A DNA stretch of 5,161 nucleotides, taken from IMG/VR virus record IMGVR_UViG_2526164688_000026; one strand, 5' to 3'. Under the pieces are notes generated by a model. That model was given only the letters and a program-made list of their open reading frames with translations. It did no database searches and had not been told where the DNA came from. This document shows positions 2,588 to 2,745 of the stretch, in pieces. The translations under genes were made by a program, and so were the position numbers. Each line of letters opens with the position of its first letter. Positions within the stretch are counted from its first letter, which is position 1. This stretch comes from a virus (Duplodnaviria > Heunggongvirae > Uroviricota > Caudoviricetes).

Positions 2588-2610
2588 CCTGACCAGTGGA
2601 AACAAAAAAC

Positions 2611-2717
2611 AGACAGAAACGGGACTCACGAATCCCGTAAATGACCAAAAAACGCGCAGCGATATATGAAGCGCGCACAAAACAGGCAAAAACGGGATTT
2701 CAGAATCCCGTAAACGA
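2611..2717. promoter_or_regulatory. Candidate parC-like centromere / ParR operator with embedded parMR promoter
   Basis: Two imperfect direct repeats (about 2611-2644 and 2684-2717) of form cag(a/g)ca(g/a)aaACGGGA-N8-TCCCGTaaa(t/c)ga. Each holds a 6-bp inverted repeat, ACGGGA 2619-2624 / TCCCGT 2633-2638 and ACGGGA 2692-2697 / TCCCGT 2706-2711. Cores are 73 bp apart (about 7 helical turns). Between them is a GC dyad around a TATAT stretch (CGCGC 2653-2657 ... GCGCGC 2671-2676). Lies immediately upstream of parM. Promoter elements are weak matches only (possible -35 ATGACC 2641-2646, -10 TATATG 2663-2668). Confidence 0.4.
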
Positions 2718-2745
2718 TTAATTAATCAACATAAGGAAAAGCGAC

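Follow-up and report, generated by a model that had tools for sequence, protein, structure and literature searches.

The window analysed here, a stretch of 5,161 nucleotides of a Caudoviricetes virus (IMG/VR record IMGVR_UViG_2526164688_000026), carries genes for the actin-like ATPase ParM and the adaptor ParR behind a phage replicase gene, with two similar repeats ahead of parM. Are these repeats the centromere on which the encoded proteins would act, and what could such a machine do for a phage that normally resides in the chromosome? On the comparisons of sequence described below, the two repeats are likely to be the ParR-binding, parC-type centromere of a type II (ParMRC) cassette. The coordinates of the features are collected in Table 1.

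Table 1. Features of the window discussed in the text, with coordinates counted from its first nucleotide
Feature	Position	Strand	Remarks
gpA, rolling-circle replication endonuclease	353–2587	+	Pfam Phage_GPA, 6.7e-131; frameshifted in the window
Repeat 1 (arm 1)	2603–2644	.	A-rich left part, then dyad 1; within the gpA 3' end in intact relatives
Dyad 1 core CGGGACTCACGAATCCCG (YGGG-N10-CCCR)	2620–2637	.	Inner half-sites GGGAYT / AATCCC, centres 10 bp apart
Inter-arm spacer	2645–2675	.	CGCGC/GCGCG dyad; gpA TGA at 2667–2669 in intact relatives
Repeat 2 (arm 2)	2676–2717	.	Sole truly intergenic arm
Dyad 2 core CGGGATTTCAGAATCCCG	2693–2710	.
parM leader ATTAATTAATCAACATAAGGAAAAGCGAC	2718–2745	+	Shine-Dalgarno AAGGA at 2733–2737, read from the sequence
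parM, actin-like segregation ATPase	2746–3705	+	Pfam StbA_N, 3.7e-82; ParM_N, 8.7e-69
parR, 103 aa, presumed ribbon-helix-helix adaptor	3710–4021	+	PF10784 'plasmid stability B', 1.7e-24
135-aa ORF	4120–4527		No Pfam match; C-terminal half is PHROG 13916, labelled 'DNA ligase'

The window and its host prophage

The window is a segment of a temperate prophage resembling phage P88 (Xuanwuvirus, P2 family), and other Xuanwuvirus genomes also match it. Chromosomal prophages that are 95–99% identical to the window segment occur in 1371 of 5426 complete Escherichia coli genomes (approximately 25%), with O104:H4, O157:H7 and ST131 among the carriers in the listed records. The copies are chromosomal at 1531 of 1533 places, and the phage carries an integrase. 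The modules are arranged as gpA replicase, parM, parR, variable cargo, cos and portal; the fuller arrangement in the O104:H4 genome begins with the integrase, the repressor/cox region and the early genes, continues with gpA, parM, parR and small ORFs, and ends with portal, terminase, and capsid and tail genes. In the window, parR is followed by the 135-aa ORF and by the end of the portal gene on the other strand.

The stretch between gpA and the portal gene is a cargo hotspot in P2. Window positions 4022–5000 belong to variable cargo, bounded by parR (or gpA) on one side and the portal gene on the other; in relatives (L001, L008, L010, L096 and L100) the cargo comprises ORFs of 143 and 87 aa, an ORF of 167 aa, a 351-aa ORF with an ASCH protein, a KAP NTPase, or an AAA ATPase with an S8 peptidase. 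The location between gpA and the portal gene raised the possibility that parMR is a defence system, which was rejected with zero PADLOC hits; the 135-aa ORF of the window likewise gave no PADLOC hit. A 26-nt direct repeat (GTGCACAAATTTGCACG...) lies in non-coding DNA before the portal gene (4570–4595 and 4652–4677), where cos is expected, and a GGGGCATAAATTTTTTATGCCCC hairpin beside the portal gene end (4961–4986) resembles a bidirectional terminator.

Two deposited records of this prophage deserve separate mention. One circular record from an E. coli isolate, entered as a 'plasmid' (NZ_CP148288.1, L097; 34,461 bp), is an entire P88-like phage with its integrase, cox, gpA, parMR, structural genes and lysis genes. 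Its DNA identity to window positions 2588–4021 is 99%, and parR is followed by a 135-aa ORF there too. This circle may reflect an episomal or induced state. A record labelled as the Gram-positive Vagococcus sp. (NZ_JBQPOM010000071.1, L004) holds this enterobacterial prophage segment with a ParM 97% identical to that of the window, and the assembly is likely to be contaminated or mislabelled.

The gpA gene of the window departs from its relatives in two places. An extra A at approximately 2559, private to the window (1 of 64 unique sequences), leads to a premature TAG at 2585–2587, and a 1-nt deletion near 222 is a second frameshift. Such damage suggests either that the replicase of the prophage is decaying or that the source contains sequencing errors. 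Divergence from the relatives compared is also seen over the first ~190 nt of the window. Where gpA is intact, it encodes 946 aa and its TGA falls inside the TATAT element of the spacer, such that repeat 1 and the GC dyad with TATAT lie within the last ~27 codons of the gene and the annotated gap between gpA and parM is 76 nt (2670–2745). The preliminary description had placed the repeats upstream of parM, which is true of both, but in intact phages repeat 1 lies inside the end of gpA and repeat 2 alone is intergenic.

ParM and ParR

ParM matches the structure of R1 ParM (1mwk) with E = 8.6e-93 over residues 2–316. Over the first 60 residues, ParR and R1 ParR share 33% identity; the R1 ParR sequence compared proved 100% identical to the gene beside parM in many plasmids. 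A profile built from phage and plasmid ParRs matches the crystal structure of pB171 ParR (2JD3) with E = 2e-14. The earlier identification of the genes downstream of the repeats as a true ParM/ParR pair is thus upheld by the Pfam families, by 1mwk, by PF10784 and by the profile match to 2JD3.

Within the clade, the N-terminal 60 residues of ParR and the last eight (NIRALFPE) are conserved and the linker between them is variable, as would suit a protein with a DNA-binding head and a ParM-binding tail joined by a flexible linker. In the C-terminal tail, an N and an L are invariant across the R1, IncL/M and phage ParRs. The AlphaFold2 model of the ParR monomer is of low confidence (pLDDT 54).

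Two direct repeats with internal dyads

One direct-repeat family was found, comprising two copies of 42 nt that are 81% identical and lie 73 bp apart, start to start. The copies had earlier been described as about 35 bp long; their existence as two direct repeats is far beyond chance, and it is the length that required revision. The best 42-nt direct match in 2500–2800 scored 34, compared with a mean of 23 and a maximum of 28 in 1000 dinucleotide shuffles, and dyads with 6-bp arms numbered five, compared with a mean of 0.43 and a maximum of four (1000 dinucleotide shuffles of the same region).

Each copy contains the inverted repeat ACGGGA-N8-TCCCGT reported previously (2619–2638 and 2692–2711), and the core of the dyad is CGGG-N10-CCCG in both, with the general form YGGG-N10-CCCR. 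With up to two mismatches allowed, the motif CGGGAYT-N4-AATCCCG occurs in the window at the two repeat sites only (0.08 expected), and it is unique to the same two sites in a 40.5-kb locus containing the whole prophage. The dyad-to-dyad distance of 73 bp corresponds to ~7.0 helical turns, which makes the earlier placement of the dyads on the same face of the helix reasonable. A-tracts near the repeats recur at ~10.5 bp, the strongest such signal in the window, albeit a marginal one that was reached by 111 of 2000 shuffles, and A-tract phasing was accordingly discarded as a sign of curvature. Downstream of the dyads, the sequence ATTAATCAA...TAAGG before parM is kept in the Plesiomonas and Hafnia loci.

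The spacer between the arms contains a second kind of dyad, with CGCGC (2653–2657) and GCGCG (2671–2675) placed around GATATATGA. In one relative (L054), CGCGC/GCGCG is replaced by CGTGC/GCACG (window positions 2655 and 2673), which is a compensated change, and 11 other sequences have the T-G intermediate only. The L054 change is anecdotal support for pairing in the GC dyad.

A crude consensus scan, with which a weak promoter would be compatible, detected no sigma-70-like promoter in 2400–2900 or in the O104:H4 relative, and no plus-strand terminator was detected between gpA and parMR. TATAT was considered as a core promoter or −10 element and rejected, as it holds the gpA stop codon in relatives and is part of no sigma-70-like site. 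Given the lack of a promoter-like site, parMR is perhaps read through from the early operon. The repeats possibly also serve as an operator, a role that is unsupported because no promoter was detected between or beside the arms.

The repeats accompany parMR rather than gpA

The cassette stands behind unrelated upstream sequence in two viral contigs (L053 and L088) and in an E. coli chromosome (L101/H142), and both repeats are kept in each; homology to the window begins in all of them at 2604–2605, the left edge of repeat 1. Conversely, two E. coli prophages (L099 and L100) have a P88-type gpA with other cargo replacing parMR. There the similarity of gpA to the window ends at ~2556–2575, and the dyad motif is absent from all 6.3 kb of these loci.

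The geometry of the site extends to more distant relatives. Exactly two YGGG-N10-CCCR elements are located at −126 and −53 from parM, with a spacing of 73 bp, in E. coli, Salmonella and Hafnia. They are found at −132 and −60 (spacing 72 bp) in a Plesiomonas locus (L094) and at −129 and −56 (spacing 73 bp) in a second Hafnia lineage (L093), with no other match in either locus, although the ParMs of these two are only 62% identical to that of the window. All three clades with the two-dyad geometry have in common the ParR strand TRR(I/V)SFYL, whereas the corresponding place is occupied by different repeats in clades with the ParR strands NRKISFYL, NRKCSFYI, RRTIAFKL or KKYTLYLH. The same strand accompanying the same dyads, and other strands accompanying other repeats, is what a site recognized by ParR would be expected to show. 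Within the close clade, no covariation of ParR and site was found; the ParR N-terminus is invariant there, so that this comparison has no power. On sequence grounds, the repeats are tied to parMR rather than to gpA and behave as a cis element of the parMR cassette.

These distributions bear on the proposal that the repeats are sites of some other factor (gpA, Cox, Ogr, a repressor or a host protein) and are beside parM by chance. The P2 origin is located inside gene A, and repeat 1 lies inside the gpA frame in intact phages, both of which would suit a replication signal. Against this, P88-type gpA genes without parMR have no motif, the repeats follow parMR into other contexts, and the prophage has no further copies of the motif, although these would be expected for a global regulator. 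A P2 ori-like sequence was not found in the window, although this is a weak test. Ogr-dependent late promoters follow a TGT-N12-ACA pattern, from which the repeat motif differs. We regard a chance neighbour of this kind as highly improbable. The narrower proposal of a gpA origin or a constraint on the gpA C-terminus was rejected, given that gpA loci without parMR are without the repeats and that the reading frame differs in Hafnia.

Several observations concern the borders of the cassette. Repeat 1 and the spacer (2605–2669, frame 3) encode a tail of 20-odd residues, KKQTETGFTNPVNEQKTRRDI, which ends three unrelated upstream ORFs in the same frame (L053, 1239–1460; L088, 993–1460; L101, 2498–2566); the orphan KKQTETGFTNPVNEQKTRRDI piece is labelled by PGAP as a partial 'DNA replication protein'. 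The tail is probably a by-product of the cassette boundary. In L071 (~1460–1530), a 73-bp deletion has left a single copy fused from repeats 1 and 2, the outcome that recombination between direct repeats would give, and in L023 (~1103–1480) foreign DNA is inserted directly upstream of repeat 2.

The search for plasmid relatives of this ParR clade by tblastn returned seven plasmid records only. Six of the seven, which match at the DNA level as well and are annotated, carry a replication endonuclease beside parMR and were rejected as plasmid relatives, being the same phage module; the seventh is a 26.8-kb Shigella record without annotation under the match. A scan of genome contigs with ParM yielded only three close loci.

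Conservation of the dyads

The alignment of homologous loci, which the preliminary description had put forward as a test of conservation, shows the dyads kept in 64 relatives, in the Hafnia phage and in two diverged clades. Variation among 64 unique close relatives is nearly absent from the GGG/CCC cores and from the A-rich left part of repeat 1; it is unrestricted in the central 4 nt of each dyad and also affects the outermost positions. The start of dyad 2 is fixed at −53 from the parM ATG in ~80 viral contigs.

In the Hafnia phage, whose ParR is 75% identical, the repeat segments are 75–93% identical (repeat 1, 75–80%), compared with 58% for the gpA tail and 44% for the spacer with its GC core. 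The GC dyad around TATAT to which attention had been drawn is therefore present in the window, but with this low identity and a gpA stop codon inside, it does not constitute a conserved core. In that phage, repeat 1 is translated in another frame as part of gpA, which ends at a TGA directly behind dyad 1; that the repeats are kept despite the different frame points to selection on the DNA rather than on the encoded peptide.

Substitutions paired between the copies were seen in two relatives. L088 has CGGGA changed to CAGGA in both copies, and L036 has AATCCC changed to AAACCC and AACCCC, with the ParR N-terminus unchanged. These could be due to gene conversion between the copies or to tolerated drift.

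The same alignment allows a protein site to be weighed against hairpins, in which the dyads would act as mRNA stabilizing or processing stem-loops, as minus-strand terminators or as single-strand signals of rolling-circle replication. The predicted RNA fold is strong (z = −5.3 for the plus strand, −4.1 for the minus), both dyads are followed on the minus strand by T-rich runs and are flagged as terminator-like, and the common variant TCCCGT to TCCTGT retains a G-U pair in the plus-strand RNA. Yet no compensatory double change was found in either dyad among the 64 unique sequences, and single-sided changes yield A-C, C-A and A-G mismatches. In Plesiomonas, the stems are merely 4 bp and 3 bp with 10-nt loops, whereas the direct-repeat identity over GCGGGACAAC is perfect. 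The plus strand is without a U-tract, no minus-strand gene reads into the site, and no Rfam match was obtained for 2400–2900 (E up to 1). As signals for gpA replication, hairpins are further at odds with the absence of the repeats from gpA loci without parMR. A terminator was accordingly rejected, as its matches are on the minus strand only, with no gene to terminate, and are lost in Plesiomonas. A structured RNA was also rejected on the Rfam result and the absence of compensatory changes, the fold z-scores following trivially from two similar palindromes. Hairpins in general are improbable as the explanation of the dyads. Invariant half-site cores, a free central 4 nt and the absence of compensatory pairs fit a protein site rather than a hairpin.

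Comparison with known segregation systems

Every characterized parC is located immediately upstream of parM (PMC5016525, PMC9426499), and the present locus has a ParM ATPase, a ParR gene directly downstream and a repeated cis sequence upstream of parM, as in type II loci. The contrast with R1 drawn in the preliminary description holds: in R1 parC, a 39-bp promoter core is flanked on either side by five 11-bp direct iterons in tandem (PMC2241845), and the iterons, as seen in locus L012, are A/C-rich and 11 nt long. The two have in common a two-armed cis region of ~150 bp directly upstream of parM that is A-rich on the parM strand (PMC2241845). In the window, however, each arm has one 42-nt palindromic unit, with ~10.5-bp A-tract units that are weakly periodic, and where the R1 core is a promoter repressed by ParR, the core here is the end of gpA, poorly conserved and with no promoter detected. 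The IncL/M plasmids, whose T-rich 10-nt iterons form two clusters at a distance of 73 bp, resemble the window in their two-armed layout and A-rich top strand.

The closest counterpart in design is parC1 of plasmid pB171, which is reported to consist of just two direct repeats upstream of parM (PMC9426499, citing Ringgaard 2007). Both are type II loci with a ribbon-helix-helix ParR and two direct repeats with internal dyads. The pB171-type locus has copies of 15 nt (CTCAAATTGAGTATT and CTCAGATTGAGTATT), each with an 11-bp palindrome or near-palindrome, at a distance of 41 bp that is an integral number of turns; these copies are presumably the published ParR sites. The pB171 sequence is unrelated, with 15-nt units compared with 42 nt here and a spacing of 41 bp compared with 73 bp. 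Its sites are also fully intergenic and belong to a plasmid with a second par locus, whereas arm 1 of the present site extends into the replicase gene of a phage that integrates. A distinct centromere design, as had been suggested for the window, is not sustained, as two palindrome-containing direct repeats are also present in pB171-type parC1 and direct and inverted repeats in srpC.

Actin-type segregation modules have been described for other elements that are normally integrated. In SXT/R391 elements, srpMRC stabilizes the transient excised circle, and the adaptor binds direct and inverted 13-bp repeats of srpC (PMC4489591); in prophage CGP3, AlpA binds alpS and links phage DNA to AlpC filaments (PMC4446434, PMC5539076). 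The proteins of these systems are distant from or unrelated to those described here, which in contrast are close relatives of enterobacterial plasmid ParM and ParR, and their hosts are an integrative and conjugative element and a Corynebacterium prophage.

Among P2-like phages, the loci of Plesiomonas (L094), Hafnia (L093), Serratia (L095) and Enterobacter (L096) have the same synteny of gpA, parM, parR, cargo and portal. The Serratia and Enterobacter loci differ in having one inverted repeat of 19–20 nt around 28 nt and the ParR strand NRKISFYL. In these two, the candidate parC (L095, 2382–2447; L096, 2383–2450) has the arms AGGAACGAAATAGAAAAAT / ATTTTTCTATTTCGTTCCT, which are 100% complementary in L095 and 85% in L096. 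No published study of the parMR of P88 or Xuanwuvirus, or of other P2-like parMR loci, was found in the literature searched.

Proposed mechanism and possible roles

If the repeats are the parC of the cassette, the following mechanism may be proposed. Each 18–20-bp dyad, with its half-sites GGGAYT and AATCCC one turn apart, would bind two ParR ribbon-helix-helix dimers head to head; in pSK41, ParR contacts 10-bp repeats within 20-bp units (PMC5016525, PMC9426499). The dyads, ~7 turns apart on A-tract-rich DNA, would be bridged by ParR–ParR contacts into a small segrosome, the NIRALFPE tails of ParR would capture the growing ends of ParM filaments, and the filaments would push apart circular phage genomes, excised or replicating. 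Some features weigh against a centromere. The element is normally chromosomal, where a centromere has no obvious use, there are two sites and perhaps four ParR dimers, compared with ten iterons in R1, and arm 1 overlaps coding sequence.

A related explanation accepts binding of ParR to the dyads, but assigns it to the tethering of replicating DNA to ParM filaments in the lytic or induced phase, or to stabilization of the excised circle, with no plasmid-style inheritance. This would suit an integrating phage, with its integrase and its chromosomal location at 1531 of 1533 places, and it has precedents in the integrated elements with actin-type systems (PMC4446434, PMC5539076, PMC4489591). Furthermore, parMR lies directly behind gpA with no detectable promoter or plus-strand terminator, which suggests co-transcription with the early replication operon. 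On the other side, R1 ParM is a very close relative of this ParM, plasmid systems likewise have a conserved ParR tail, and the complete circular copy of 34.5 kb deposited as a plasmid fits true episomal maintenance. We consider a role confined to these phases possible, but the less likely outcome.

A broader proposal, which we advance tentatively and hold to be rather doubtful as it stands, is that the phage lineage keeps a working ParMRC in which a minimal two-palindrome centromere, joined to the replicase gene at its 3' end, couples replication to the segregation or positioning of circular genomes. Were this true, it would allow a plasmid-like carrier state or, after induction, an orderly allocation of the replicating genomes. 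P2-family phages would thereby gain their first demonstrated actin-based DNA-positioning system, with a ParR that reads inverted half-sites.

Significance for P2-like phages

The parC-type reading of the repeats thus makes the site a probable, uncharacterized parC of known type in an unusual host element. For centromere biology, it would provide a compact two-site example like that of pB171 and would not add a new principle. Of greater interest is the use that an integrating phage makes of ParMRC, for which the systems compared suggest candidate roles: the module could serve episomal partition, segregation of the excised circle (as srpMRC) or positioning of replicating phage DNA (as AlpAC/alpS). 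If ParR binds the dyads, a prophage present in about one quarter of complete E. coli genomes would have a complete plasmid-type segregation machine, with its cis site pinpointed to two 18-bp palindromes. The reasons for which an integrating phage keeps ParMRC, its episomal persistence, and interference with plasmids that use related ParR and parC would then become testable.
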